DNA of 16,645 bases. Source: Candidatus Eiseniibacteriota bacterium. GTDB lineage: Bacteria; Eisenbacteria; RBG-16-71-46; JABDJR01; JAWXBZ01. A model generated the notes under the pieces. It saw nothing but the letters and a program-made list of their open reading frames with translations, was not told the DNA's origin and did not search any database. The number at the start of each line of letters is the position of its first letter. Positions within the stretch are counted from its first letter, which is position 1. The position numbers were made by a program, and so were the translations under genes. The stretch lies in contig JAWXBZ010000135.1 of assembly GCA_034440375.1 (NCBI GenBank), positions 1 to 16,645 on the forward strand. Reading direction: 5' to 3'. Positions 2,491 to 16,645 of the stretch are shown here, piece by piece.

Positions 2491-4338
2491 CTACCTGGCG
2501 ATCACCATGCGCCCGCTCACCTCATGATTTTCGGATCGGAACCGGACCAGGTAGGTCCCCGATGCCACCGGCTGACCGGCATCGTCCTGACCGTCCCAAA
2601 GGAGGCGGATGGGTCCTTCGGGTCGATCCCCCTGAAGCAGGCGGCGGACAAGCCGCCCCTGGATATCGTAAACCTCGATCGAAACGGGTCCAGACTGCTG
2701 CATGGCAAAAGTCAGGCTGGTGGGGCCACGCGACGGGTTGGGGGCGATCATCCGGATGGCAATGGGCGCCTCCGCGGGCGCCAACTCCGAGGGCACGCCC
2801 ACGAATCGGAAGCGACGGAGTTCCGGGTGCCAGGAAACGAGCCCGTCGGTGTCCCGCGCGCGGGCTTCCATGGTGTGCCAGCCGGGGCTGGTAATGGAAA
2901 CCGCCCTGGTTCGCGATGGGTCGAACGGGGTCCAGGCGCCGCCGTCCCATCGCCACGAATAGGTCAACTCCTCGTGCCCTGTGGAGTCATCGGAGCCGTG
3001 GGCGGTCCACATCGGATTGGGATCCATTGTTTCCTCGTCGAATCCTGGTCCATCGACGAGCGAGATGGAGGGTGGAGATCCCGTCGGGCCGTGAACCACG
3101 TGGAAGGTAACCGGATCGATCGGGTCCGATTCGTCCCCCTCGTCGTCGATGGCACTCAGATGAAAGCGGTAGCTGCCTTGAGGGAGTGATTCAAAGTAGA
3201 GGTTCAGGTCATCCGACCAGTTGTCCGGGCTGGCCGCGATCGTGCCGGACCAATCGCCCACGCGGTGCTCGAGAGCATATCGATATCGAATCCGATCCAC
3301 CGGCGTTCGATCATCGGCACCCACCCAGGAAAGGTCCAGACCGATCGGGCCGGGTGACTCCGGCTCGGGAATGCCAAACAGTCGAAGTGTCGGCGCGAGA
3401 TTGCGCTCGCCGGTTGTCGTGAAAAACAGTGCCCCCTCACCCACCTGACCGCTGCGATCCAGGGCACGAACCCGAAAGATGTGGGCGCCCCGTTCCAGAT
3501 TAACCGTCGTGACCGGTTGCCACGGACTTCGATCGGCGAGTGACTGCCAGGGTCCGTCATCCACTTTCCAGGTCTGGGGAATGTTGCCCTGGTGCGGCAC
3601 ATCGTCGCTGACATCCCATTGGATGAGGACGTCGTCATCCTCAACGGACGACCCCTGGCGCGGGTGGGAGAACGTGATGATTGGTTCGGTTCCGCCCGGA
3701 GGTTCAAGGCAGGGATTGAAGCCATCGATATCGCCGGGATGAGCGGCAGTCCCGAAGCTGACCCATCCGAGCCGGCGAGGGTAGACATCGGTCGCGCTGG
3801 CATTACAGTCGGCAACTGCTGCGAGACCATCCACCGGTCGTGGCACCAGCCTCATCGTCGCAGGCGAGTAGGGCGTGACATAGAAGTAACCGGCGACGGC
3901 CAGTTCAGCCGTCTGGCAGCGATTGACTGGATCCCAGGTCATGAGGTTGCCCGATCCGGAGGCCGGCCAACTGGACCCCGGAAATTCCAGGCTGCCGCAG
4001 AATCGCCAGTCATTCACCTGGATCCCGACTCCCGGGCCGCCCTCGTACTCGATCCCGAACTGCAACCCGGCCAGGGTTTGGACGCCCGTCGAATCGGCGT
4101 TCCGCACCAGCACGTAGACGAAGTACCCCGCTGCCCCCGTCGGATCGCTCGGCGCGGCGGTCACCACTTCCTGGCAACGAACCTGGCCGGCGCCACAGGC
4201 ATTCTTGCCGGTTGGCGCGCCGATGTGGAGCAGGATCATGGGGTGATCGGCGGTTGCGCCCCGGGCGCCGGGCCCGGCGAACGCGGACAGAAGTGCGACG
4301 ACCACCAGGGGGGTTAGTGCCTTCCGCACCGGAGACAT
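2491..4338 (-). CDS. Secreted protein, 615 aa: signal peptide, Cys-rich unknown domain, three Ig/FN3-like (Y_Y_Y-like) repeats, C-terminal FlgD-Ig/T9SS-CTD-like domain (paralog A)
   Basis: ATG 4338 preceded by GGAGGGAG, 2 nt after the dusB stop. MSPVRKALTPLVVVALLSAFAGPGARG signal. Repeats of W.G.DD.T...Y...DG..W...G.H.F.VRA.D..G. C-terminal PNP...VYDIQGRLVR...WDGQDDAG..VASGTYLVR. Confidence 0.85.
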   Translation of the reverse strand: MSPVRKALTPLVVVALLSAFAGPGARGATADHPMILLHIGAPTGKNACGAGQVRCQEVVTAAPSDPTGAAGYFVYVLVRNADSTGVQTLAGLQFGIEYEGGPGVGIQVNDWRFCGSLEFPGSSWPASGSGNLMTWDPVNRCQTAELAVAGYFYVTPYSPATMRLVPRPVDGLAAVADCNASATDVYPRRLGWVSFGTAAHPGDIDGFNPCLEPPGGTEPIITFSHPRQGSSVEDDDVLIQWDVSDDVPHQGNIPQTWKVDDGPWQSLADRSPWQPVTTVNLERGAHIFRVRALDRSGQVGEGALFFTTTGERNLAPTLRLFGIPEPESPGPIGLDLSWVGADDRTPVDRIRYRYALEHRVGDWSGTIAASPDNWSDDLNLYFESLPQGSYRFHLSAIDDEGDESDPIDPVTFHVVHGPTGSPPSISLVDGPGFDEETMDPNPMWTAHGSDDSTGHEELTYSWRWDGGAWTPFDPSRTRAVSITSPGWHTMEARARDTDGLVSWHPELRRFRFVGVPSELAPAEAPIAIRMIAPNPSRGPTSLTFAMQQSGPVSIEVYDIQGRLVRRLLQGDRPEGPIRLLWDGQDDAGQPVASGTYLVRFRSENHEVSGRMVIAR

Positions 4339-4340
4339 GA

Positions 4341-5342
4341 TCAGACTCCCTCCAGGATGGTGATCTCCGGCGTGTGGAGCAACTCCTCGAAAAACGCCTC
4401 CACGGCCCGCATGAACCCTTCGCTGTCCGGAATGCCGTTGATCTTCTGACGGAGGCCCCGCCCGCCCGGGAGACCGTGCGTATACCAGCCGGCGAAGGTG
4501 CGGATCTTGTGGAAGGCGGTCTTTTCGTCCTCCCCGGCCAGCAGGAGGCGGAAGTGCTCCAGGATCAGGTCGCGGCGCTGCATGGCGGTCGGCTCGGCCC
4601 AGGTTTCGCCGCGGAGCTCGCTGGCGCACTGCTGGAAGATCCAGGGGTTCTTCATCGAGGCGCGGCCGATCATGACCAGGTCGCAACCGGTCTGACGGAA
4701 CATGGCCACGGCGTCGGCGGGTGTGTTGACATCGCCGTTGCCCATGACGGGGATCGTGAGAGCGTTTTTCAATTCGCTTATCCGATCCCAATCGGCGCGG
4801 CCGCCGAACATCTGCTTCGCCGTGCGGCCATGAAGAGCCACGGCGTTGACGCCCTCCCCTTCGCAGATCTTTCCGAGCTCGAGGAAGTTCAGCGCGGTCT
4901 CGCGGAGGCCAAGACGGAACTTGACCGTCAGCGGAATCGTTACCCGGCGGCGCACCGCGCGGATGATCTCCTTTGCGTTGTCCAGATCACCCATCAGGCT
5001 ACAGCCGGCGCACCCCTTCAGGATCTTGTTGGCCGGGCAGCCCATGTTGATGTCGACGATATCGGACCCTTCGTCCTCGACAAGCTGGGCGGCATCGGCC
5101 ATCCGGTCGGCGCGGCTGCCGTAAATCTGGATGGAGATCGGCCGCTCTTCCTCGGCGAACGTCATCATCCGCCGGGTCCGATCGATGCCCCGCGTCAGCG
5201 CCTCCGACGAAATGAACTCCATCGTCACGACGCCCACCCCGCCGATCCGCTTCAGGATCAGCCGGAAGTACTTGTCCGTGATCCCGGCCATGGGAGCCAG
5301 GACGAACGGCGGGTCGACGGGCACGTGTCCGATGCGAATCAT
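4341..5342 (-). CDS. dusB: tRNA-dihydrouridine synthase DusB
   Basis: LAPMAGITD, IQIYGS, DINMGCPANK (catalytic Cys), TVKFRLG, LHGRTAKQ, GNGDV, VMIGRAS..NPWIF. Confidence 0.93.
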   Translation of the reverse strand: MIRIGHVPVDPPFVLAPMAGITDKYFRLILKRIGGVGVVTMEFISSEALTRGIDRTRRMMTFAEEERPISIQIYGSRADRMADAAQLVEDEGSDIVDINMGCPANKILKGCAGCSLMGDLDNAKEIIRAVRRRVTIPLTVKFRLGLRETALNFLELGKICEGEGVNAVALHGRTAKQMFGGRADWDRISELKNALTIPVMGNGDVNTPADAVAMFRQTGCDLVMIGRASMKNPWIFQQCASELRGETWAEPTAMQRRDLILEHFRLLLAGEDEKTAFHKIRTFAGWYTHGLPGGRGLRQKINGIPDSEGFMRAVEAFFEELLHTPEITILEGV

Positions 5343-5367: not shown

Positions 5368-7473
5368 CTAACGGACGACCATCAGGGCCCGCGTGGCCAC
5401 CAGTCCCCCGGCCTCCAGTCGGACGTAGTAGGCCCCTGCCGGAGCGGCCTCGCCGGAGTCCAGACGACCGTCCCAGGCGACCAGGTGGGCACCGGCAGCC
5501 AGAACCGAAAACGGCAGCGTCCTCACCGGCCGGCCGGCAATGTCAAAGACAAGGACCGAGACCACCGATTCACGTGACAGGGCGAAGTGGAGCGTCGCGC
5601 CGCCTGGCGTCGGGTTTGGAGCCAGCGCAAGGATCCGAAACGTCGCGACGGGTGTATCGATGCTCACGACATTGGACCACCGCTGTCCGGCCCGCTCGAC
5701 CCAGGCCAATCGATAGTGAAGAGTCGTGGCCGGCGGAGCGGTCGCATCGCGCCACCGGAACTCGCCGCTCTTCGAGGCCGGAATGCGCGGACTGATGGCG
5801 ACGAAGGGTCCTTCCGAAGCCGGGGCGCGCTCGACCTGAAAATCAATGATCTCGTCGAGATTAGCCGTCCAATTCAACTCCACCTGGTCCGCCACGATGG
5901 CCGCCGACATCGTGGCCAGGGCCACGGGATCCGGAATGTCCCCCAGCCAGATGTGCCGGAAGGCCGGAGTTGGATCGATCCGGCCGCCGCCGTCCATGGC
6001 GCGAACCTCGAAGAAATGCAGTCCCCAATTCTGCAGCACGACATCGGCAGAAGTTTCGGGTACGAACGGTGTCCACGGCGCCCCGTCGAGACGCCACGAG
6101 AACAGGAGCGCCGAAACGGCCGTCGAGTCATCGGTGCCGGTGAATCCGTAGGTGACATTCGGGTTGTACTGAGAGCCGCCATCCCGCGGGCCGGCGATGA
6201 TGAAGGTTTCGGGAGGCGCCGGAGGCGGTGGCGGCGGCGGTTCGACCACTTCGACGCGGAAGTGGCGTGACGCCGCCGTGGGGTCCTTCTCGCCGTCCAG
6301 GTCATGCGCCCGGACCTGAAACTGGTAGATGCCCGGCTGGGAAATGCTGAACGTCGCCATCGTCACGGCGGTCGGAGCGGCCTGGTCCCAGTCGTTCGTG
6401 ATGCCGAACGTGTAGCGCAGATCCCCGACCGCGGTGCGATCGTCCTCACCGCTCCAGGTGAAGGTCACCGTGGCGGGCGCCGGGCTCACCACCGGCGGTC
6501 CGGTCAGGAGGATCGTTGCCGGGGGATCATTCAACGGGCCGAGGGTTTCGAACGTCACCGACGCTGAAGCTTCCGTGCCGTCCACGGCCCGGGCGACGAC
6601 ATCAACCTGGTGGTTGCCGATCGGCAGATTGGTGAAGGTACGCTGGCTCGACACCCTGTTGGTCAACCAGGCGCCGCCATCGATTCGGCTGTCGTATCGG
6701 AGCTCGTAGGGTTGCCACTCCGGCTCGACCATGGAAGCGTTCCAGTCGACCAGCACGTCGTCGTCAGCAATGACCTCCTGGTTCAACGGCTGAGCGATCG
6801 AGAGATCGATCGTGGGGGGCGGATATGGACTGATCTCATCACAGGAGTTGAACCCGTCGGTGTCCCCGGCGTGGGATGCTCCCCCGAAGCTGACAAATCC
6901 AAGGAGCGATGGCCCCACGGGAAATTCCACCGATCCGCAGTTCGCCGTCTTGGCAATGCCGTCAACCGGCCTGGGTGTCAACCACACGTTCGACGGGCCG
7001 TATGCCGAGAGATAGAAAAATCCGGCAACCGCCGTTTCTCCGCTCTGACAACGGTTCCAGGCATCCCACGTGATCAGGTTGCCGGAGCCCGAATCAGGCC
7101 ACGCCGGAGTTAGTGAGGCAAACTGAAGCGTGGCGCAGTTAGTCCATCCCCACATCCGGATCCCGGGGGTCGCACCATGTCGATCGAAAGCAATCCCACA
7201 CTGCAGGCCCCCCAGCGTGCCCGAGGTGTCCGGCAAACCACTCTTGGCCAGTAGGTAAACGAAATACGAACTGGAGCCGTCGGGATTACTGGTGCCGGCG
7301 GTGACGATCTGGTCGCAGGAGACCTGGCCATTCTGGCAGACGTTTTTGGCAACTGGTGCAGTCACATGAAGCATGAGAGCCGGGTAATCGATCGGGGTGG
7401 CGGCGGCGAGGCTGGACGACAGGACGATCGTCAGGCTGACAAGGGCCGGGAGTGCCAGGAAGCCAGCGCGCAT
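5368..7473 (-). CDS. Secreted protein, 701 aa: signal peptide, Cys-rich unknown domain, three Ig-like repeats, poly-Pro linker, pre-CTD FN3-like domain, FlgD-Ig/T9SS-CTD-like domain (paralog B)
   Basis: ATG 7473 with GGAG upstream. MRAGFLALPALVSLTIVLSSSLAAA signal. Colinear with 2491-4338. C-terminal PNP...VFDIAGRPVR...WDGRLDSG...AGAYYVRL. Confidence 0.85.
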   Translation of the reverse strand: MRAGFLALPALVSLTIVLSSSLAAATPIDYPALMLHVTAPVAKNVCQNGQVSCDQIVTAGTSNPDGSSSYFVYLLAKSGLPDTSGTLGGLQCGIAFDRHGATPGIRMWGWTNCATLQFASLTPAWPDSGSGNLITWDAWNRCQSGETAVAGFFYLSAYGPSNVWLTPRPVDGIAKTANCGSVEFPVGPSLLGFVSFGGASHAGDTDGFNSCDEISPYPPPTIDLSIAQPLNQEVIADDDVLVDWNASMVEPEWQPYELRYDSRIDGGAWLTNRVSSQRTFTNLPIGNHQVDVVARAVDGTEASASVTFETLGPLNDPPATILLTGPPVVSPAPATVTFTWSGEDDRTAVGDLRYTFGITNDWDQAAPTAVTMATFSISQPGIYQFQVRAHDLDGEKDPTAASRHFRVEVVEPPPPPPPAPPETFIIAGPRDGGSQYNPNVTYGFTGTDDSTAVSALLFSWRLDGAPWTPFVPETSADVVLQNWGLHFFEVRAMDGGGRIDPTPAFRHIWLGDIPDPVALATMSAAIVADQVELNWTANLDEIIDFQVERAPASEGPFVAISPRIPASKSGEFRWRDATAPPATTLHYRLAWVERAGQRWSNVVSIDTPVATFRILALAPNPTPGGATLHFALSRESVVSVLVFDIAGRPVRTLPFSVLAAGAHLVAWDGRLDSGEAAPAGAYYVRLEAGGLVATRALMVVR

Positions 7474-7568
7474 GAGATGTCTCCGGGTCGATTGCGGCGG
7501 TTCTATCGGGAGCGGGTTTCGGACGGAAGCATAGCCGCTCCGTGAGTGCCGGGTCCTGAAAAACCGCC

Positions 7569-8417
7569 CTACCGCCCTGCCGGCCGCGGGCGGATCGGCC
7601 CCGATTCCAGGAGCGCGAGCCCCGGTATCCGCCGCCCGTCGGCGATTTCGGTGCAGTTGAGCAGCACATGCTCCACGTATTCCCGGGCGCGGAGGCAGGC
7701 ATCGACCAGCGGATCGCCGAAGGAGAGGCGGGCGGCGATGGCGGCGGAGAGCATGCAGCCGGTGCCGTGGGTGCCGACACCAGTCACGCGGTGGCTGGTC
7801 CAGCGGTGGATCGTTTCCTTGTCCCAGAGGACATCGACCAGCTCGCGGCCGGCCAGGTGTCCGCCCTTGAGCAGCACGGCACATCGATGCTGCTGGCCGA
7901 GCTCACGGGCGGCGTCGGGCATGTCCCCGGCGTCACGCACGGCGTGGCCGAGCAGGACGGCGGCTTCGTCGAGGTTTGGTGTCAGCACATGGGCGAACGG
8001 AAAGATTCGGTCGACATAACCTTTGATTGCATCCTCGTTCAGTAGTCGCGCGCCGCTGGTGGCCACCATGACCGGATCGACAACCAGCCGGGTAATGACG
8101 TTCTTTGCCACGGCATCGCCAACGACGTCGACGATCTCCCGCGAGTAAAGCATGCCGGTCTTGACCGCGCCGACCGGAAAGCCGAGAAAGATGGCGTCAA
8201 TCTGCTGCGCAATGACATCCACCGGCACCGGGTGAATGGCACGGACCTCATCCAGGTTTTGCGCGGTGACGCAGGTGATGACGGTGGTTCCAACCGAACC
8301 CATCCGGGCAAACGTGATCAGATCGGCCTGGATACCCGCGCCGCCGCCGGAATCGGAACCGGCAATGCTGAGCGACACCGGCCGCTTGATCGGCTTGAGT
8401 CCGAGGTGAAGCACCAT
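7569..8417 (-). CDS. thiD: Hydroxymethylpyrimidine/phosphomethylpyrimidine kinase
   Basis: SIAGSDSGGGAGIQADL, VTAQN, VKTGML, VVDPVMVATSGARL, TPNLDEA, LKGGH, THGTGCMLSAAIAA. Start overlaps the upstream stop (TGATG). Confidence 0.95.
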   Translation of the reverse strand: MVLHLGLKPIKRPVSLSIAGSDSGGGAGIQADLITFARMGSVGTTVITCVTAQNLDEVRAIHPVPVDVIAQQIDAIFLGFPVGAVKTGMLYSREIVDVVGDAVAKNVITRLVVDPVMVATSGARLLNEDAIKGYVDRIFPFAHVLTPNLDEAAVLLGHAVRDAGDMPDAARELGQQHRCAVLLKGGHLAGRELVDVLWDKETIHRWTSHRVTGVGTHGTGCMLSAAIAARLSFGDPLVDACLRAREYVEHVLLNCTEIADGRRIPGLALLESGPIRPRPAGR

Positions 8418-9550
8418 CAGGTCGAGTCCTTCTGGCCCCCACCAATGATGCGGAAGGGCGGCGGACGTTCGGCCCTGGACGGTGTCTCGTCGGGAGGCGC
8501 ATCGAGTGCAGGTGCATCTGTCGATTCGGACGGAGTGGGGATCACCGGATGCGTCGGCCCCGGATCGGGCGCGTCTGACCCGCCGATCACCGGAACCGCG
8601 GGAATCGCGCCGGGCGGCAGAAACCCCGGATGCGTCAGAGCACGATGACGGCCCCGAAAGCCCTTGAATCCGTGGCGGCGTTCCGCATCGAGTTTCTCGG
8701 CCAGGTCACGGAAGCCGGCCGCCTCCTCGGAAAAGCCGGCCTCGACGGCCTTCATCGCCAATGTCGCCGCCAGGAGTGACAAATCGGCGAGATCGTGAAG
8801 ATGGCCGAGCTGGTCCTGCATTCCTTTCAGGAGGGCGATCCGCCGGACGATCGGGGGGGGGAAAAGCGGTGCGAAGAGCTCGAGCGCGTACCGCAACTTC
8901 TTTCCGGCAATCCGGAAGCGGTGCTGGGCCTCGGCGTCGTGAAGCTCCAGCGGCTCAAGCGGCAGGGCACGCACGGCCTCCCAGGCCTCGCGCAGGGCCT
9001 CGAGGGCCTGCTGGCAAAAGTCGGCCAGCGTCATGGGCGCCGCGTGATCCCTGGGCCAACGGTGGTCCTCGAGATCACGGATGACCCGCACGAGCCGCCG
9101 GCGCAGCCGGTTCAGTGCCAGCCGGTCGACGAGTTCCCCACCGGTCCGGTCGAAGTCGTCGCGACGCGATAGCAACTGGGCGGCCATCGATCCGGCGGCT
9201 CCGCGGGCAGCAGGAGAAAGTCGCTCTTTCAAATTGGCCAGAAGCGCGGCACCGACCTCGGCCTCGCGCGGTCCGCCCAGCTCACGCCGGATTGTTTTCA
9301 GGCGACGGGCCAGCCGACGAGCCGGCTTCCCGGCGATGAACTCGCGCCCCGCATCGAGGATGCCTCGCAACCTCCGGGAGGTAACCCGAACGTCGTGAAT
9401 GGCCTCGGTGTCCCGTTCGTCCGACTCCAGCCGGCGGAGCGCTGATTCAAGCGCCCCCCGCTGGGATTCAAGCGCAATCGCCAGCCACCGGTGCGGGCCA
9501 AGGACGTTGAATTCCGGTTCAGTCAGCCTGTTTCTTGGTGATCGGGTCAT
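8417..9550 (-). CDS. CHAD domain protein (polyphosphate-binding family) with Pro-rich C-terminal tail
   Basis: EAIHDVRVTSRRLR, LGGPRE, HRFRIAGKKLRYALE, LKGMQDQLGHLHD are CHAD His/Arg motifs; GAGG before ATG 9550. Confidence 0.88.
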   Translation of the reverse strand: MTRSPRNRLTEPEFNVLGPHRWLAIALESQRGALESALRRLESDERDTEAIHDVRVTSRRLRGILDAGREFIAGKPARRLARRLKTIRRELGGPREAEVGAALLANLKERLSPAARGAAGSMAAQLLSRRDDFDRTGGELVDRLALNRLRRRLVRVIRDLEDHRWPRDHAAPMTLADFCQQALEALREAWEAVRALPLEPLELHDAEAQHRFRIAGKKLRYALELFAPLFPPPIVRRIALLKGMQDQLGHLHDLADLSLLAATLAMKAVEAGFSEEAAGFRDLAEKLDAERRHGFKGFRGRHRALTHPGFLPPGAIPAVPVIGGSDAPDPGPTHPVIPTPSESTDAPALDAPPDETPSRAERPPPFRIIGGGQKDST

Positions 9551-9695
9551 TTTGCCCTCAGTAATGTCTCGTCATGATAAACCAGCGTGCCATCCCGGCG
9601 CCTCATGCTTGTAATGAGGTCGGAACGCCGTCTAGACTGGGCATGGCCCACTTCACAGCACTCCCAACGCGATGGCCGCCAGAGGAGACACCCCA

Positions 9696-11528
9696 ATGAC
9701 TACTCGACGGGCACAGGCCCTGATGGCGGGCACCGTTCTGGTCACGACCTGTTTCGCCGCCACGATGAGCTCCGCTGCCCTCCCCACCAATTTCGCCGAT
9801 CAATCCGTGGTTACGGGGCTCTCACAACCGGCCGGCATGGCCTTCCTTCCCGACGGCCGCATGCTGATCATCGAACAAAAGACGCGCAACGTGCGGCTGG
9901 TCCTGGCGGGCGGTGCAACGGCCGACACGACGCTGATTATTGCCGACGTGAACACCTCGGGCAATGAGCGCGGCCTCCTGGGGATGGCCATCGATCCGCA
10001 GTGGCCGACCCGGCCCAACATCTATTTTTACTTCGACCAGACGCCCTCGATCAAGAACTATATCGTGCGTTACACCGCTACGGGTGATCTGTCGAATGGC
10101 GCCTCCAGCAACCTGACGCTCGGGAGTCGCTACAACATCATGACCGACATCCCGGACGCGGCCAGCAATCACAACGGCGGCACACTCCGATTCGGCATTG
10201 ACGGCAAGCTTTACGCCAGCCTTGGCGAGGATGCCGATGCCTGTGGCGCGCAGAACAACACGCTGCTCAAGGGAAACATCCTCCGACTCGACATTGACAA
10301 CCTCCCGGCGGGCGCCGGCGGGCCGCCGGCCAAGAGCCTGATCACGCCGGTCGACAATCCGTTCGTCGGATCGGCCAACGCCAACACCAAGCTGGTCTTT
10401 GCCTTCGGCTTGCGCAATCCCTTTCGCTTCCAGATCGATTCGCTGACCGGAATCCTTTACATCGCTGATGTCGGGCAGAACACCTTCGAAGAGATCGACG
10501 AATGCGACGGCGGCGAGAATTTTGGCTGGCCGAATTTCGAGGGGAATGCCTTTTTCTCAGGGACCTGCCCGGCGGCCTCGCCGGTTGGACCGATCGCCAC
10601 CTATGACCGTACCGGGTTCGCCAGCGCCTCGATCATCAGCGGCCCTCGCTACCGCCGGGTCTGCGGCGGGCTGTATACCTTTCCCGCCGACTACGAGGGG
10701 GATGTCTTCTATTCGGAATACTACCAGGGATTTCTCCGCCGCCTGCGCAATACGGCCGGCACCTGGGCCCCCGCGCCCGGCGCGCCCGGACAGCCGAACG
10801 CCAACGACTGGGCCACCGCCACAACCAACGTCAGCGACTACGCCATCGGCCCGGATGGCGCGATCTACTACTGCAAGCAGTTCACCGCCGGCATCCGACG
10901 CATCGTTTACACCGGTCTGCAACCAGCCGGCATGGTGCCGACGGTCATGGCCAGCGCGGTATCCAGCAGCCGGATCGACATCACCTGGAGCGCCCCGCCA
11001 AACGGCGGCGCTGTCGTGTCCTATGACGTCGAGTGTCGTATCCCACCGGCGGCTTTCGCGCTGCGTGCCAATGTTCCTTCTGGCACGACGGCCTATGCCG
11101 ACACCGGCCTCATGGCGTCGACGATCTACGAATACCGGATCCTGGCGAAGAACGCCGCCGGCGCCTGGGGCTACAGCGGCACCGCATCCGACTCGACGCT
11201 GACCCAGAGCGGCGTAGGCGATCCGGCCCCCCGCCCCGCCATCCTGACGGCGTTCCCGAATCCGTTCCGGTCCGGCGGCGGCGTGACGATTCGGGCGGAG
11301 GCGGTAAACGGCTCACCGCTCACGCTTCGGGTTTTCGACACGGCGGGCCGCCGCATCCGCGATCTGTCGGTGGCTGCCACCCGGAACGACGTCCTTGGCG
11401 GCCCGGTCTTCGTCACCTGGGACGGCCGAAACGACGACGGCCGCCAGGCCCGACCCGGAGTCTACTTCCTCCGCTTCGAGGCGGGCGGCCGCGTGGCCAC
11501 GCATCGACTGGTTCTGGCCGGGCCCTGA
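9696..11528 (+). CDS. Secreted PQQ-dependent sugar dehydrogenase (glucose/sorbosone dehydrogenase beta-propeller) + FN3 + FlgD-Ig/T9SS-CTD-like domain, 610 aa
   Basis: AGAGGAG SD at 9681-9687 favours ATG 9696. Signal peptide; GLSQPAGMAFLPDGR, ERGLLGMAIDP, HNGGTLRFGIDGKLY, GLRNPFRF, ADVGQNTFEEID, NFGWP. FN3 (IDITWS...YADTGL...YEYRILAKN). C-terminal PNPF...FDTAGR...WDGRNDDG...GVYFLR. Confidence 0.88.
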   Translation: MTTRRAQALMAGTVLVTTCFAATMSSAALPTNFADQSVVTGLSQPAGMAFLPDGRMLIIEQKTRNVRLVLAGGATADTTLIIADVNTSGNERGLLGMAIDPQWPTRPNIYFYFDQTPSIKNYIVRYTATGDLSNGASSNLTLGSRYNIMTDIPDAASNHNGGTLRFGIDGKLYASLGEDADACGAQNNTLLKGNILRLDIDNLPAGAGGPPAKSLITPVDNPFVGSANANTKLVFAFGLRNPFRFQIDSLTGILYIADVGQNTFEEIDECDGGENFGWPNFEGNAFFSGTCPAASPVGPIATYDRTGFASASIISGPRYRRVCGGLYTFPADYEGDVFYSEYYQGFLRRLRNTAGTWAPAPGAPGQPNANDWATATTNVSDYAIGPDGAIYYCKQFTAGIRRIVYTGLQPAGMVPTVMASAVSSSRIDITWSAPPNGGAVVSYDVECRIPPAAFALRANVPSGTTAYADTGLMASTIYEYRILAKNAAGAWGYSGTASDSTLTQSGVGDPAPRPAILTAFPNPFRSGGGVTIRAEAVNGSPLTLRVFDTAGRRIRDLSVAATRNDVLGGPVFVTWDGRNDDGRQARPGVYFLRFEAGGRVATHRLVLAGP

Positions 11529-12568: not shown

Positions 12569-12713
12569 CGAAAGAAATTTCAACTCCCCCCAATCCAATC
12601 CCGGTGGGCCCTACGTAAGACTCGCAAAGCCGAAGGCGATGAGGGAAAGAGCCATCCCACCCAGCCCTTCGACGTTCCGCGAGTTTCCACTGTCCGCACC
12701 AAAGGGGAACGCC

Positions 12714-13622
12714 ATGATCTCGAAAGCGACCATACACCATGCAGTTTGCCGGGTCAGCCTGGCCCTGTCCGCGGCTTCGCTGGCCGCTGTTCTGACTGCT
12801 TTTTCACCCGCGCCGGCTGCCATGGCTGCCGAGGAACTCTTTGCGGTGACCACGAGCAATACGCTGGTCAACTTCAACAGCTCGACCCCGTGGTTTTTCT
12901 CCAGCCGGCCGATTACGGGCCTGATGGCGGGTGAAAACGCCTGCGGCATCGACTTCCGCCCGGCGCTGCCTGTTGGTCGCCTGTACGTCCTCGGCAGCAC
13001 GGGCCGCGTTTATCGTATCGATGACCCGTTCTCCGGCGTGGCCACGCTCGTGACCACGACGCCATTTGCCCTGTCCGGCACCAACTTTGGTTTCGACTTC
13101 AATCCGACCGTTGATCGGATTCGCGTGGTCAGTGATGCCGACCAGAATCTGCGGCTGCACCCCGACACCGGAAACCTGGTCCTGGCGGACACGCCGCTGG
13201 CCTATGCGGCCGCTGACGCCAACTTCGGCGTGAACCCGGGCGTGACCGCGGCTGCCTACACCAACAGCTTCGCCGGCGCCACGACCACCACGCTATACGA
13301 TCTCGACACCGACCTCGACAACCTGACCACCCAGACGCCGGCCAACGCCGGCACGCTGCAGACGGTTGGTTCGCTGGGCTTTGACGCCAATGGCGTCAAT
13401 GGCTTCGACATCTCCGGTGCCACGGGAGTGGCCTATGCCGCCCTGAACACCGGCGGTCCGCAGTCAAACCTGTACACGATCAATCTGATGACCGGAGCCA
13501 CCACCGATCTTGGCGTCGTCGGTTGCCAGGAGCCGCTCCGCGGCCTGAGCGTCTACCGCGAACTCCCGACGGCTGTTGAGGGGACGACCTGGAGCCGGGT
13601 GAAGACGTTGATGGGGAACTAA
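12714..13622 (+). CDS. Secreted DUF4394-domain protein with short C-terminal TTWSRVK tail, 302 aa
   Basis: AAAGGGG SD before ATG 12714. Signal peptide ending AMA. GIDFRPA, FGFDFNPTVDRIRVVS, QNLRLHPDTG, AAAYTNS, TTLYDLD, GFDI match my recollection of DUF4394. Confidence 0.82.
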   Translation: MISKATIHHAVCRVSLALSAASLAAVLTAFSPAPAAMAAEELFAVTTSNTLVNFNSSTPWFFSSRPITGLMAGENACGIDFRPALPVGRLYVLGSTGRVYRIDDPFSGVATLVTTTPFALSGTNFGFDFNPTVDRIRVVSDADQNLRLHPDTGNLVLADTPLAYAAADANFGVNPGVTAAAYTNSFAGATTTTLYDLDTDLDNLTTQTPANAGTLQTVGSLGFDANGVNGFDISGATGVAYAALNTGGPQSNLYTINLMTGATTDLGVVGCQEPLRGLSVYRELPTAVEGTTWSRVKTLMGN

Positions 13623-13644
13623 CCCATAAGTCGATCTGGAATGA

Positions 13645-13679
13645 GAAATCCCACCCGACGGATGGTCGGGTGGGATTTC
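13645..13679. terminator. Probable bidirectional intrinsic terminator between convergent genes
   Basis: Perfect 15-bp inverted repeat GAAATCCCACCCGAC-ggatg-GTCGGGTGGGATTTC; T-rich run-outs on both strands. Confidence 0.8.
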
Positions 13680-13697
13680 CTGTTCAACAGCGTTGGA

Positions 13698-13719
13698 TCG
13701 GCGTGCAACAGCACGCCGA
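13698..13719 (-). other. Second hairpin immediately after the bacilliredoxin stop codon
   Basis: Perfect 9-bp stem TCGGCGTGC-aaca-GCACGCCGA; no U-tract. Confidence 0.55.
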
Positions 13720-13720
13720 C

Positions 13721-14158
13721 CTATTGTGCGCTGGCGCCGGTGACGCAATGCTCCTGGAAAGCCGCATTGAGGCGATTCGCGATGGTCATCGCGTCGTTTC
13801 CCTCGATGTCGTGGCGTTCCATCATGAACAGCAGTTTGCCGTCACGAACCAGTCCGATTGCAGGCGAGGACGGCAGATAGCCGGTGAAGTAGCCGCGAGC
13901 CTTCGCGGTGGCTTCGACATCATTGCCGGCAAAGACGGTGATGAAGTTTTCCGGTTTCACTTCGGACTGCATGGCCAGGGCAATTCCGGGCCGGGCCTTT
14001 CCGGCGGCGCAGCCGCAGACGGAATTGACCACGACCATCGTCACGCCCTTCGTCGATTCCAGCTCGCGCTGGACATCCGCGGCGGTTTTGGTTTCCTTGA
14101 ATCCGAGCTGGGCCAGCTCTTCGCGCATCGGCGCCACGAGCGTTTCGTCGTAACCCAT
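13721..14158 (-). CDS. brxA: Bacilliredoxin, BrxA/BrxB (YphP/YqiW) family, 145 aa
   Basis: AGGAG SD before ATG 14158. LVAPMREEL, VVNSVCGCAAGKARP (CGC motif), TVFAGND.EAT..AR, PSSPAIGL, ERHDIEG. BrxA versus BrxB cannot be resolved by eye. Confidence 0.93.
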   Translation of the reverse strand: MGYDETLVAPMREELAQLGFKETKTAADVQRELESTKGVTMVVVNSVCGCAAGKARPGIALAMQSEVKPENFITVFAGNDVEATAKARGYFTGYLPSSPAIGLVRDGKLLFMMERHDIEGNDAMTIANRLNAAFQEHCVTGASAQ

Positions 14159-14216
14159 TGAAATATCTCCTCTTGGCGGGAATCGGCGGCCGAACATCCT
14201 ATTCGGCCCGCCACTT

Positions 14217-14235
14217 GCCTTCTATTATAGAAGGC
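14217..14235 (-). promoter_or_regulatory. Inverted repeat containing a perfect TATAAT box upstream of brx
   Basis: Minus strand GCCTTCTA-TAA-TAGAAGGC (8-bp arms); TATAAT at 14229-14224; no convincing -35. Confidence 0.5.
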
Positions 14236-16494
14236 TCAAAGTGTATCACGGTTCGCCGCCAGGCGATCCCGCGCCACCACCCGCCCCTGCAAGTCCACCT
14301 GGCCGAACGAAAGAACGCCGGTCGGGCACATCTGGACGCAGGCCGAGCAGCGGACACACTGCGGGTCGGCCATCGGCAACCCTTTGTTCGCGAAGCTCAT
14401 GATGTCGATCCCCTGGTGGCAGACGGAAGTGCAGACGTTGCAGGAGATGCACTTCTTCTTGTCGGCCAGGATCCGGAAACGGCCAAGCCGGGCGTACCAG
14501 TGCATGAGGGCGGCCAGCGGGCATGCAAATCGGCACCAGGTACGCCCGGAGTACCAGAAGTAAAGGCCGTAGCCGAGAACGCCGGCCAGGAAGACATCAA
14601 CAATCCACTTCCAGCCGTCCTTGAGAACCTGAAAATGGCTGGCGGCCCAGGAGTCCGGCCAGATCCACCCGATGATCCGGACGACCAGCATCAGGAACGC
14701 GACGGCGAGCAACCCCTGACCGATGAAATTGAGACGATTCCACTTCGGGCCGTGCGGCATCTTGTGGCGATGCGTATCACCCAGCGTTTCGGCCAGTGCG
14801 CCACACGAGCAGATCCAGCCGCAGTAGGCCCCTTTCCCCCAGAAATAAACCAGGATCGGGATGAGCACGAACGTCTGCACGAAGCCCAGGATCAGCCAGG
14901 CCATGAGCGGCTGGTCGGTGAAGATGTTGTAGATCATCAGCGGCCAGGCAAGGATCAGGCCGTAGGCGCGCCAGAACTCCCGGCCGTGGCCGTAGTCAAC
15001 TGCTGGAAAGAGCGCGTCGGCCAGCCCCACCGGAAGCCCGCCGTGGTAATTGAGCCAGGGGAGAATGACTTCGGGCAGCAGGAAGAGCGGCACGACCTGT
15101 ATCGCCATCAGCGTCAGCGTCTGGACCGTGACGTAGGGTGTCCTTCGGCGGCGAATGCGCTTGACGCCAAACACGACGACCGCCAGCGAGTAGGCCAGCG
15201 TGTACCAGAACGACGGGCCGGAGGCCGACTTGATCACGATGCCCGCGAGGCTCGTCGGTGCGATCGAAAGGCCAGCGGCAAGAGTTTCGAGATTCGTCGG
15301 GAACCACTGCTTCGCATACCAGAGATGGCTGAACCAGCCGTCTGATTTCCAGTTGTAGAGCCAGGCGCAGAAGAGCAGGAATACGCCCATCAAGACCCAG
15401 CTGGCCGGGCGCATCTCACCGGCGATTGGAAGGCCCGAACGGCGGAAGAAATCGAGTGGCGCCTCGCGTCCGATGAGGACGAAGACGGCATCGTTGGCGA
15501 TCGTCTCGGGCGCTCCGCTGGCGGCCCCCTTGACCGGCCCGATGGTGACGGATTCCGGGCGGATGACCCGGACCGACGTGCCAAGCGCGGAACGGATCCG
15601 GCCCGGGGCCGGCTCGCGGTCGGTTGTCCTCAGCCGACGATAGCGCACCAGGTTCTCGGGCTTCGGGCGCGAGAACCCGCTTTGTCGATACGACAGCGTG
15701 ACCGACGCCCCGGCCTCGGCCAGCGCCGTGGCCGCTTCGAGGGCAGAATCACCGCCACCCACGACGAGAACCCGGCGTCCGGCAAAATCAGCCGGGTCGT
15801 GAAGCCGGTTGGAAACCTTGTCGAGTTCCTCCCCCGGCACGCCGAGCATCCGGAAGTTGCCGCTCCGCCCGATGGCCACGATGACCCGTCGTGCCGGAAG
15901 CTTCTCGCCACCGGCGAGGTGGACCGTGAGGCCACCGCCGGTCCCGCGGCCGATCCGCTCCGCCCGATCACTCCGGGTGGTGACTCCGACGGCCTGAACC
16001 TGGGCCTCCAGCTCGTCCACCAGTGCTTCCTTGATCGTGGCCGACACCTGCAGATCGCCCACCGGGGTCATCGTCGTCGGATAGGTGAAGATCGGTTTTT
16101 TCTTCGGGAAATTGATCAGCGTGGCAAGCGGAACCGCGGACTCGATGACCCGGAAGGTCATCCCCTGCTTTCGGGCCTCGACCGCGGCCGAGAGGCCGGC
16201 CACGCCGGCACCGAGGATGACGAGATCGACCGGGCCGGAACCAGCGCCACTCGCATCCGTGCCGAGGGTCAAAGGAGGTGAGGGCGTCCCACTCCGCCAC
16301 CCCGGTTCGGCCACGATGGCTAAAACGGCGCGTGCGCCTCCATCAAGGGCGAACTTGAGGAGGGGAACTCCCGAGAGATCACCCACGATACGGACGCCGG
16401 GAATGGCGGTCGCGCCATCCCGGCCGATCTCGGGAAGCTTCTCGACCGAGCCGGCCGGCCACCCGAGATGAAGCCAGCGAGCCCAGGCGATCAG
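14236..16494 (-). CDS. FAD/NAD(P)-binding TrxR/YpdA-like oxidoreductase fused to a polytopic NapH/MauN-like 4Fe-4S membrane domain; start uncertain (CTG 16494 tentative, first canonical start GTG 16386)
   Basis: DLVILGAGVAG and VLVVGGGDSA Rossmann motifs. Several hydrophobic helices. CGWICSCG, CRFACP, CISCNVCTSVC and CVRCSACVQMCP motifs. The frame stays open and protein-like upstream of 16386 (AWARWLHLGWPAGSVEKLPEIGRDGATAIPGVRIVGD). Confidence 0.85.
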   Translation of the reverse strand: MIAWARWLHLGWPAGSVEKLPEIGRDGATAIPGVRIVGDLSGVPLLKFALDGGARAVLAIVAEPGWRSGTPSPPLTLGTDASGAGSGPVDLVILGAGVAGLSAAVEARKQGMTFRVIESAVPLATLINFPKKKPIFTYPTTMTPVGDLQVSATIKEALVDELEAQVQAVGVTTRSDRAERIGRGTGGGLTVHLAGGEKLPARRVIVAIGRSGNFRMLGVPGEELDKVSNRLHDPADFAGRRVLVVGGGDSALEAATALAEAGASVTLSYRQSGFSRPKPENLVRYRRLRTTDREPAPGRIRSALGTSVRVIRPESVTIGPVKGAASGAPETIANDAVFVLIGREAPLDFFRRSGLPIAGEMRPASWVLMGVFLLFCAWLYNWKSDGWFSHLWYAKQWFPTNLETLAAGLSIAPTSLAGIVIKSASGPSFWYTLAYSLAVVVFGVKRIRRRRTPYVTVQTLTLMAIQVVPLFLLPEVILPWLNYHGGLPVGLADALFPAVDYGHGREFWRAYGLILAWPLMIYNIFTDQPLMAWLILGFVQTFVLIPILVYFWGKGAYCGWICSCGALAETLGDTHRHKMPHGPKWNRLNFIGQGLLAVAFLMLVVRIIGWIWPDSWAASHFQVLKDGWKWIVDVFLAGVLGYGLYFWYSGRTWCRFACPLAALMHWYARLGRFRILADKKKCISCNVCTSVCHQGIDIMSFANKGLPMADPQCVRCSACVQMCPTGVLSFGQVDLQGRVVARDRLAANRDTL

Positions 16495-16507
16495 GAGCCC
16501 GGTGAAT

Positions 16508-16645
16508 TTATCGTCGCGTGACGTTGGCCAGGCCGCCGGCGAGGCGCCGGGCGCGCCCGGAGGAACTTCCGGCCGGACGGACGACGCGGGAGTGAAGGGT
16601 CCAGCGAGGATTGAGCAGAAAATCGGCCAGGAGCCGGCTCCAGGA
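16508..16645 (-). CDS. 3' end of an upstream gene, possibly a fatty-acid/sphingolipid delta-4 (DES1-like) desaturase
   Basis: Minus frame from 16645 reads SWSRLLADFLLNPRWTLHSRVVRPAG...NVTRR* (TAA 16510-16508). It resembles the SW...DF..D......SR..R C-terminus of DES1-type desaturases. Only 45 aa are visible and it is absent from the ORF track. Confidence 0.5.
   Translation of the reverse strand, partial: SWSRLLADFLLNPRWTLHSRVVRPAGSSSGRARRLAGGLANVTRR

Follow-up and report, generated by a model that had tools for sequence, protein, structure and literature searches.

What does a flavoprotein do when it is fused to a membrane iron-sulfur (Fe-S) module and encoded directly beside a bacilliredoxin? 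This question is raised by contig JAWXBZ010000135.1 of Candidatus Eiseniibacteriota bacterium (assembly GCA_034440375.1), which was analyzed over its entire length of 16,645 nucleotides (nt), hereafter the window. On the minus strand, the 3′ end of a desaturase gene is followed by the fusion gene (14236..16494), which encodes a permuted flavoprotein of the Bdr/YpdA kind fused to a membrane polyferredoxin of the NapH type, and then by brx (13721..14158), which encodes a bacilliredoxin of the BrxA/BrxB family. A preliminary description of this locus proposed that the fusion and brx form a membrane-coupled module for thiol recycling. We favor, with moderate confidence, a different reading, in which the fusion is a self-contained membrane enzyme that uses reduced nicotinamide adenine dinucleotide (phosphate) (NAD(P)H), flavin adenine dinucleotide (FAD) and Fe-S clusters, with quinone as its probable acceptor, and brx is a loosely linked neighbor.

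The fusion stop codon lies at 14236-14238, and the frame is open from there to the end of the window. The database gene call for this protein (P0001, 716 aa, from GTG 16386) is N-terminally truncated and lacks the invariant N-terminal residues. Residues that are invariant in 15 of 15 aligned sequences sit upstream of GTG 16386, and therefore the true start is near 16494. No in-frame ATG, GTG or TTG is present between the desaturase stop (16508-16510) and GTG 16386, leaving CTG 16494 as the sole option. Homologues are 736-840 aa long and cover 99% of a query beginning at 16506, and their starts match residues 47-50 of the open frame. Based on this coverage and on the upstream invariant residues, the start at CTG 16494 given in the preliminary description is reasonable and the stored call is truncated. 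The residue numbers used here count from 16506 (756 aa); a start at the CTG would give a protein of about 752 aa. Because the CTG follows the TAA stop of the desaturase by 13 nt, the sequence suggests a near-cognate start codon or termination-reinitiation. The whole fusion was predicted by AlphaFold2 (AF2) with a mean predicted local distance difference test (pLDDT) score of 93 and a predicted TM-score (pTM) of 0.90, and Pfam recognizes Pyr_redox_3/2, Fer4_5 and a Fer4 dicluster in it.

The flavoprotein core (residues 93-365; 15412..16230) carries an FAD motif, GAGVAG, and an NAD(P)H motif, GGGDSALE. It contains no cysteine, and the same is true of the entire flavoprotein part (residues 1-366 of 756). 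At the position of the CxxC of thioredoxin reductase (TrxR) stands NRLH, and the string GVPGEELDKVSNRLHDPADF is confirmed there. Three kinds of comparison agree on the nearest relative. The best NCBIfam model is YpdA (TIGR04018), the best sequence matches in the PDB are the Bdr entries 7a76 and 7a7b (E 1.4e-17), and the top Foldseek matches of the AF2 model are Bdr/YpdA structures (E about 1e-16, TM 0.66-0.68 on target). Behind Bdr in the Foldseek ranking come TrxRs, TrxR-type ferredoxin-NADP reductases (FNRs) and the iron-utilisation oxidoreductase IruO; the FNR structures 3ab1, 6gar and 2zbw match the flavoprotein behind both Bdr and several TrxRs. The protein is nevertheless not a YpdA by the curated, full-length cut-off, as it scores 110-112 bits against 339.9 and covers profile positions 1-265 of 316. 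Nor is it a TrxR, scoring 57.7 bits against the cut-off of 343 for TIGR01292, with NRLH in place of CxxC. Where YpdA has Cys14, 59 of 60 fusion relatives carry Ala or Ser.

The C-terminal part of the YpdA profile that remains unmatched has its counterpart at the other end of the flavoprotein. When hhalign was run against four aligned YpdA-like proteins, an N-terminal segment (residues 14-67; 16306..16467) fell on positions 260-315 of 316 (probability 78%, E 1.8e-5), which identifies it as the counterpart of the C-terminal FAD-binding 'GD' strand-helix of YpdA and TrxR. Similarly, a BLASTP alignment of the fusion with the genome's own YpdA-like protein (31% identity, 283 residues) ends before the C-terminal FAD segment of the latter. 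The N-terminal 80 residues by themselves match no family in Pfam and NCBIfam hidden Markov model (HMM) scans at E<=10, and the N-terminal piece gives nothing significant in BLASTP against that YpdA-like protein. The match of the N-terminus to the missing C-terminal segment indicates, at the level of profiles, that the flavoprotein is circularly permuted, with its C-terminal FAD segment moved to the N-terminus. This permutation frees the C-terminus of the flavoprotein to enter the membrane. A second YpdA-like paralogue is found in three genomes of the phylum (G034:C2:74301-75092, G028:C5:212571-213350 and G046:C18:31659-32441; 144-158 bits). It lies in open frames of 453-470 aa, matches YpdA profile positions 1-264/267 alone, and may be another permuted or C-terminally replaced form that lacks the NapH module.

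The flavoprotein is followed by a six-helix membrane module (residues 367-673; 14488..15408), for which DSSP analysis of the AF2 models places transmembrane helices at about 367-387, 431-453, 457-487, 535-556, 594-615 and 620-647. When modeled separately (pLDDT 94), the membrane half again shows six long helices and two conserved outer loops. These loops would face the outside, given the RRIRRRR turn and the requirement of the Fe-S motifs for the cytoplasmic side. Two cysteine motifs are embedded in the module: a CX3CXC motif, C562-x3-C566-x-C568 (YCGWICSCG; residues 562-568; 14803..14823), which falls within the Fer4_5 match, and a CX3CP motif, C658-x3-C662-P (WCRFACP; residues 658-663; 14518..14535), which is invariant in 60 of 60 relatives. 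A ferredoxin domain for two [4Fe-4S] clusters (residues 677-747; 14266..14478; Pfam Fer4_7/10/21) completes the protein. Its motifs, CISCNVCTSVCH and CVRCSACVQMCP, are of the CxxCxxCxxxC type, and all eight of their cysteines are invariant. Altogether the membrane half has 13 conserved cysteines, 12 of them invariant in all 60 aligned relatives and the last, C568, in 59, at identities down to 27%.

NapH/MauN is the best family of this half. The score does not reach the curated threshold (TIGR02163, 62 bits versus 213; NF007013, 44 versus 234), whereas the arrangement of two CX3C-type motifs and two C-terminal 4Fe-4S motifs is that of the family. Among solved structures, Foldseek returned no match to the transmembrane module at E<=1e-3. 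A VIA-align comparison with 48,161 chains yielded matches for the ferredoxin part alone, to bacterial-type ferredoxin domains (Z 5-6), and its helical-bundle rows (Z<=4) are uninformative. The architecture given in the preliminary description is borne out by these data: a YpdA/Bdr-like flavoprotein without the TrxR CxxC, joined to a NapH-like polytopic part with two CxxxC-type and two ferredoxin-type motifs.

This combination is widespread. At E<=1e-3, 4748 of 8000 scored candidates match the fusion; at least 582 relatives were recovered among 599 pattern matches in one-genome-per-species contigs, and 475 cluster representatives match at E<=1e-30. Conservation is high, at 50-76% identity across several phyla. 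The protein atlas holds solely automatically named clusters of the family, and our literature searches found no paper that describes this fusion, although searching by keyword cannot exclude one. The fusion combines known kinds, a permuted Bdr/YpdA fold and a NapH-type module, and its function is predicted. What is new here is the direct test of the link to brx and bacillithiol, the permutation at the profile level and the non-canonical start.

No partner gene is conserved beside the fusion. We clustered all open reading frames (ORFs) within 5 kb of the best 80 loci among the at least 582 relatives, a sample that spans several phyla and includes some members of the same candidate phylum. The commonest neighbor family occurs at 10 of the 80 loci, and none is conserved family-wide. 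Recurrent neighbors are lineage-specific, such as an FKBP isomerase (10/80), a TauE exporter (7/80) and, in six Rhodothermales loci, a divergently upstream NAD kinase. The 16 ORFs found downstream of the fusion at 15 loci of relatives from the window's class comprise four methyltransferase/radical SAM proteins, two with weak dockerin/EF-hand matches and ten without a Pfam match. We considered whether another thiol-redox gene replaces brx at these loci and rejected the idea, as none of the 16 is thioredoxin-like. A periplasmic partner such as NapG or NapA is likewise absent from the ORFs of the window and from the conserved neighbors of the best 80 loci, nap genes not having been searched for genome-wide; Pfam scans of the large ORFs of the window found no NapG, NapA or FMN-binding domain.

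We propose that the cytoplasmic, cysteine-free and permuted Bdr/YpdA-type domain would bind FAD and NAD(P)H, and that electrons would pass from the flavin to the two [4Fe-4S] clusters. From there they would enter the NapH-type six-helix module with its five further invariant or near-invariant cysteines (CX3CXC and CX3CP), to be delivered most likely to the membrane quinone pool, or else to another small membrane acceptor. We infer the direction of this flow, its acceptor and the topology. The path is the likeliest one because of published descriptions of NapH-type modules, which are described as having four segments in the membrane along with a pair of CX3CP motifs, are considered to exchange electrons with quinol/quinone and are used in a modular way (PMC5928378, PMC8238504). 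The cysteine motifs of these modules have no assigned function (PMC5928378).

The gene downstream of the fusion is a bacilliredoxin, as had been stated. The 145-aa product of brx scores 191.5 bits with TIGR04191 (cut-off 100), covers profile positions 1-136 of 136, as expected of a full-length member, and matches PF06491 at E 9e-57. Its active-site motif, NSVCGCAAG with the CGC site, is invariant in 12 of 12 aligned relatives. The brx stop codon is at 13721-13723, and its likely start is ATG 14158, behind an AGGAG ribosome-binding site, although the longest ORF would begin at 14197. We assign brx to the bacillithiol system of the genome, for which three further genes were found. These are bshA (498 bits) and bshC (272 bits), both above cut-off and both on contig C63, and a separate YpdA-like reductase gene of canonical domain order (305 bits; YpdA cut-off 339.9). 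Bacillithiol is described as widespread outside Firmicutes (PMC6282198), and Brx and YpdA are treated in PMC6591457 and PMC8113031.

Is the fusion part of this bacillithiol system? Its distribution suggests that it is not a dedicated component. In a survey of 206 genomes of the phylum, the fusion was present in 124, brx in 34 and bshC in 183 at E<=1e-20, with 79 of the latter above cut-off. The fusion thus has no detectable brx in 102 of its 124 carriers; in family f9, 37 of 41 genomes carry the fusion and none carries brx, and in family f10 the numbers are 59 and one of 89. Both genes occur in 22 genomes of the phylum. In six of these, G000 and G001 (f1) and G028, G034, G046 and G050 (f15), brx lies directly downstream of the fusion on the same strand, whereas in the other 16 the two genes are apart (judged for G049 and G076 from different contigs alone). 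One of these 16, G081, is flagged as unpublished, and no conclusion rests on it. Among the best 80 loci, no brx was found within 6 kb of the fusion, and the positive control for this search worked.

Bacillithiol genes themselves are often missing where the fusion is found. This was checked in the genomes of 50 of the 80 loci (L047-L096, the other 30 being L017-L046). Here bshC was found in 27 genomes and brx in 19, such that bshC was not found in 23, brx in 31 and either gene in 21. The latter are mainly Planctomycetota and Verrucomicrobiota and include two chromosome-level assemblies. In a complete genome that carries both the fusion and brx, about 900 kb separate them. Although bshC is present in the source genome, the co-occurrence with bacillithiol biosynthesis genes that characterizes YpdA does not extend to the fusion family as a whole. 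We regard the position of the fusion beside brx as a loose, lineage-limited linkage, which does not mark the fusion as a dedicated bacillithiol enzyme.

A maximum-likelihood tree was built from 26 fusion proteins, with the remaining proteins left out. The two brx-adjacent groups form separate clades (support 100/99 and 92/89), with non-adjacent sisters beside the second. The tree implies either that adjacency was gained twice or that a single old pairing was lost at least three times. The closest relative, G001, has a long syntenic block in common with the window, minus the desaturase and the DUF4394 gene, whereas the f15 loci have nothing in common with the window beyond the fusion-brx pair. 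In the same tree, fusions of Latescibacterota, Planctomycetota, Acidobacteriota and Rhodothermales nest among those of the window's phylum, the deep branches being weakly supported. This nesting and the 50-76% identity across phyla may reflect horizontal spread or very strong constraint.

The spacer between the two genes (14159..14235) measures 77 nt from the fusion stop to the brx start, on the same strand, as originally described, and contains the brx ribosome-binding site. It also contains a palindrome of 19 nt without mismatches, GCCTTCTATAATAGAAGGC (14217-14235), whose center is a promoter-like TATAAT, and a GC-rich hairpin at about 14185-14212. These elements could serve as an operator for a promoter of brx, or could fold as RNA. 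The spacer of G001 (192 nt) has no such palindrome and carries TGCTACAAT instead. A consensus promoter scan of 13400-16645 returned no sites, and terminator-like sites in this region were not above those in shuffled sequences. In the six genomes with adjacent genes the spacers are 77, 192, 215, 200, 145 and 363 nt long, each with its own ribosome-binding site, which argues against a tight operon. A predicted complex of the fusion, Brx, FAD and two 4Fe-4S clusters scored 0.00 against a mark of 0.32; the result carries no verdict and is evidence neither way.

Several observations weigh against the self-contained enzyme with a quinone acceptor that we favor. No quinone site was identified in the fusion. 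In two separated clades the fusion and brx are arranged alike in order and orientation, a recurrence that exceeds random placement and may stem from a genuine functional link in the lineages concerned. The nearest characterized relative of the flavoprotein is a bacillithiol disulfide reductase. Canonical YpdA-like genes were detected in just 4 of 41 relatives (at E<=1e-60), yet bshC was found in almost all genomes of the phylum (183 of 206), and therefore many of these genomes must have another reductase for bacillithiol disulfide (BSSB). Finally, a disulfide role has been discussed for CX3CP motifs (PMC5928378).

In the reading of the preliminary description, the fusion of the source lineage would regenerate reduced bacillithiol or Brx, either directly at its flavin or, as Fe-S-dependent disulfide reductases do, through the Fe-S and CX3C cysteines. 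The recycling of low-molecular-weight thiols would thereby be connected, at the membrane, with NAD(P)H or the quinone pool. We regard this as unlikely. It has support in the Bdr-like relationship by HMM, PDB sequence and fold, the presence of bshA and bshC in the genome, and the recurrence of the pair in a second clade that has only this pair in common with the window. The rarity of canonical YpdA-like genes among relatives also speaks for it. This reading is kept alive at low odds by the recurrence of the pair in two clades and by the preprint account of YpdA, which describes Cys14 as buried and not universal, and YpdA homologues of other phyla as untested (10.1101/2020.12.02.408641). As a role for the family, the claim is not supported, given the brx-free carriers in the phylum, the genomes with neither bshC nor brx, the absence of brx near the fusion at the best 80 loci and the 16 of 22 two-gene genomes in which the genes are apart. 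In the six adjacent genomes, spacers of 77-363 nt count against it as well, and the YpdA score of 110 bits is far under the cut-off of about 340.

A further difficulty for a bacillithiol role is that a canonical YpdA-like gene is present besides the fusion in the source genome, in G001 and in G046. We rejected the idea that the fusion and the canonical YpdA have complementary distributions, since the fusion also occurs in three of the four relatives that carry a YpdA-like gene, and since both are present in G046. At 6 of the 80 loci, a PIG-L deacetylase paralogue is encoded divergently upstream of the fusion, which would fit a bacillithiol role if this protein were BshB. That identification was rejected, as the neighbor scores 66-69 bits versus 229-240 for a BshB1 gene located elsewhere (in three of five genomes checked).

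Could electrons instead leave the membrane module for a metal? The fusion would then resemble the metal reductase CcoG but carry its own donor: electrons from NAD(P)H would arrive at the Fe-S/cysteine module, and Cu(II) or Fe(III) would be reduced at the membrane. CcoG is described as a Fer4_5-type membrane protein with two [4Fe-4S] clusters that reduces Cu(II) and has no known physiological donor (PMC7558416). The fold matches of the flavoprotein include IruO, and at 7 of the 80 loci (L017, L027, L034, L056, L063, L068 and L084) the next gene downstream, in the same orientation, encodes a ferritin, at a median distance of 81 nt. However, this neighbor is restricted to one lineage group, the loci being from Krumholzibacteriia or Latescibacterota where titled, and no metal-binding site was identified. 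The membrane half matches NapH/MauN best, and the top 25 of its 43 rows include no CcoG model, no search having been made with CcoG's own model; a ccoGHIS context is absent from the window. On balance we consider a metal reductase improbable.

Quite unlikely, in our estimation, is a more specific proposal, that the fusion is a new membrane-anchored bacillithiol-system reductase in the two brx-adjacent lineages, the same scaffold serving another disulfide or acceptor where bacillithiol is absent. Electrons from NAD(P)H, or from quinol by way of the NapH-type module, would then travel via Fe-S clusters and reach either the flavin or the five cysteines of the CX3C type, where Brx or bacillithiol disulfide would be reduced. 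If true, cytoplasmic thiol homeostasis would be wired to the respiratory membrane.

Membrane desaturases require an external electron donor, and the preliminary description allowed that the fusion might feed the desaturase upstream of it. The fusion would then be, in the source genome only, a fused NAD(P)H-ferredoxin reductase and ferredoxin that supplies a di-iron centre. This we hold to be very unlikely: TrxR-type FNRs are among the fold matches and the desaturase stop 13 nt before the only plausible fusion start, a CTG, suggests translational coupling, but a desaturase adjoins the fusion in the source genome only and at none of the best 80 loci or of 25 loci of relatives, including that of G001. 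In G001 the gene immediately before the fusion is a conserved ORF of 172 aa (L002:969-1487) that has no match in Pfam or NCBIfam and that in the source genome sits upstream of the desaturase (L002:1-1487 compared), and therefore the desaturase looks like a recent insertion.

Only the 3′ end of the desaturase gene (16508..16645) falls within the window, as its last 45 codons and the TAA stop at 16508-16510. The rest is on the next contig of the same genome, which an exact 99-nt overlap joins to the 3′ end of the window, the window being an entire contig. The encoded protein is of the membrane fatty-acid/sphingolipid type, with Pfam matches to FA_desaturase (92 bits) and Lipid_DES. Over 16130-16645 and over the brx-fusion junction, the window is identical to contigs from three other runs. 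At 15749, within the fusion gene, one contig of run X2 has a 2-nt insertion (CA) that is not in X3 or X4 and is a strain variant or an assembly error. On the plus strand, a DUF4394 gene (12639-13622) lies between a cobalamin adenosyltransferase gene and brx; it is missing from the otherwise syntenic block of G001. The window also encodes large predicted secreted proteins (2491-4791, 5368-7884 and 9672-11528) with Y_Y_Y, FlgD_ig, fn3, Por_Secre_tail or GSDH domains, and its remaining genes are a CHAD-domain gene (8417-9550), thiD, dus and a PLD-type gene.

How, then, does the fusion compare with known systems? Like Bdr/YpdA (TIGR04018; PDB 7a7b, 7apr, 7a76), it has a fold with two dinucleotide-binding domains for FAD and NAD(P)H and no CxxC near the flavin. 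Unlike Bdr/YpdA, which is a soluble tetramer of canonical domain order, it is permuted and joined to a membrane Fe-S module, and its family also occurs in genomes without detectable bshC. The brx product differs little from BrxA/BrxB (TIGR04191), which it matches over the full length and with the CGC site; its only notable difference is its position beside the fusion in two clades. For the bacillithiol field these comparisons carry a caution, in that a YpdA-like domain beside brx is insufficient to infer a bacillithiol enzyme.

The membrane half resembles NapH/MauN, NosR and RdhC/PceC (TIGR02163, PF12801) in having, on the cytoplasmic side, two motifs of the CX3C(P) type with two 4Fe-4S motifs after them, a module defined in PMC5928378, and TIGR02163 aligns to the fusion over profile positions 42-253 of 255. 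It differs from NapH/MauN in its two extra N-terminal helices, its two strongly conserved outer loops and the CX3CXC form of its first motif, and its donor would be the fused NAD(P)H flavoprotein rather than quinol. With the CcoG/FixG cupric reductase it has in common the Fer4_5-kind membrane protein, two [4Fe-4S] clusters and additional cysteine motifs (PMC7558416), whereas it lacks the periplasmic Ig-like domain of CcoG/FixG and carries its own flavoprotein. Modules of the NapH, NosR, RdhC and CcoG type are common, and this family hard-wires one of them to an NAD(P)H flavoprotein in a single polypeptide. As the fusion usually stands alone, it offers a simple system for working out what such membrane Fe-S modules do. 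Through this fusion, the Bdr/YpdA fold appears in a circularly permuted form and with a membrane role.

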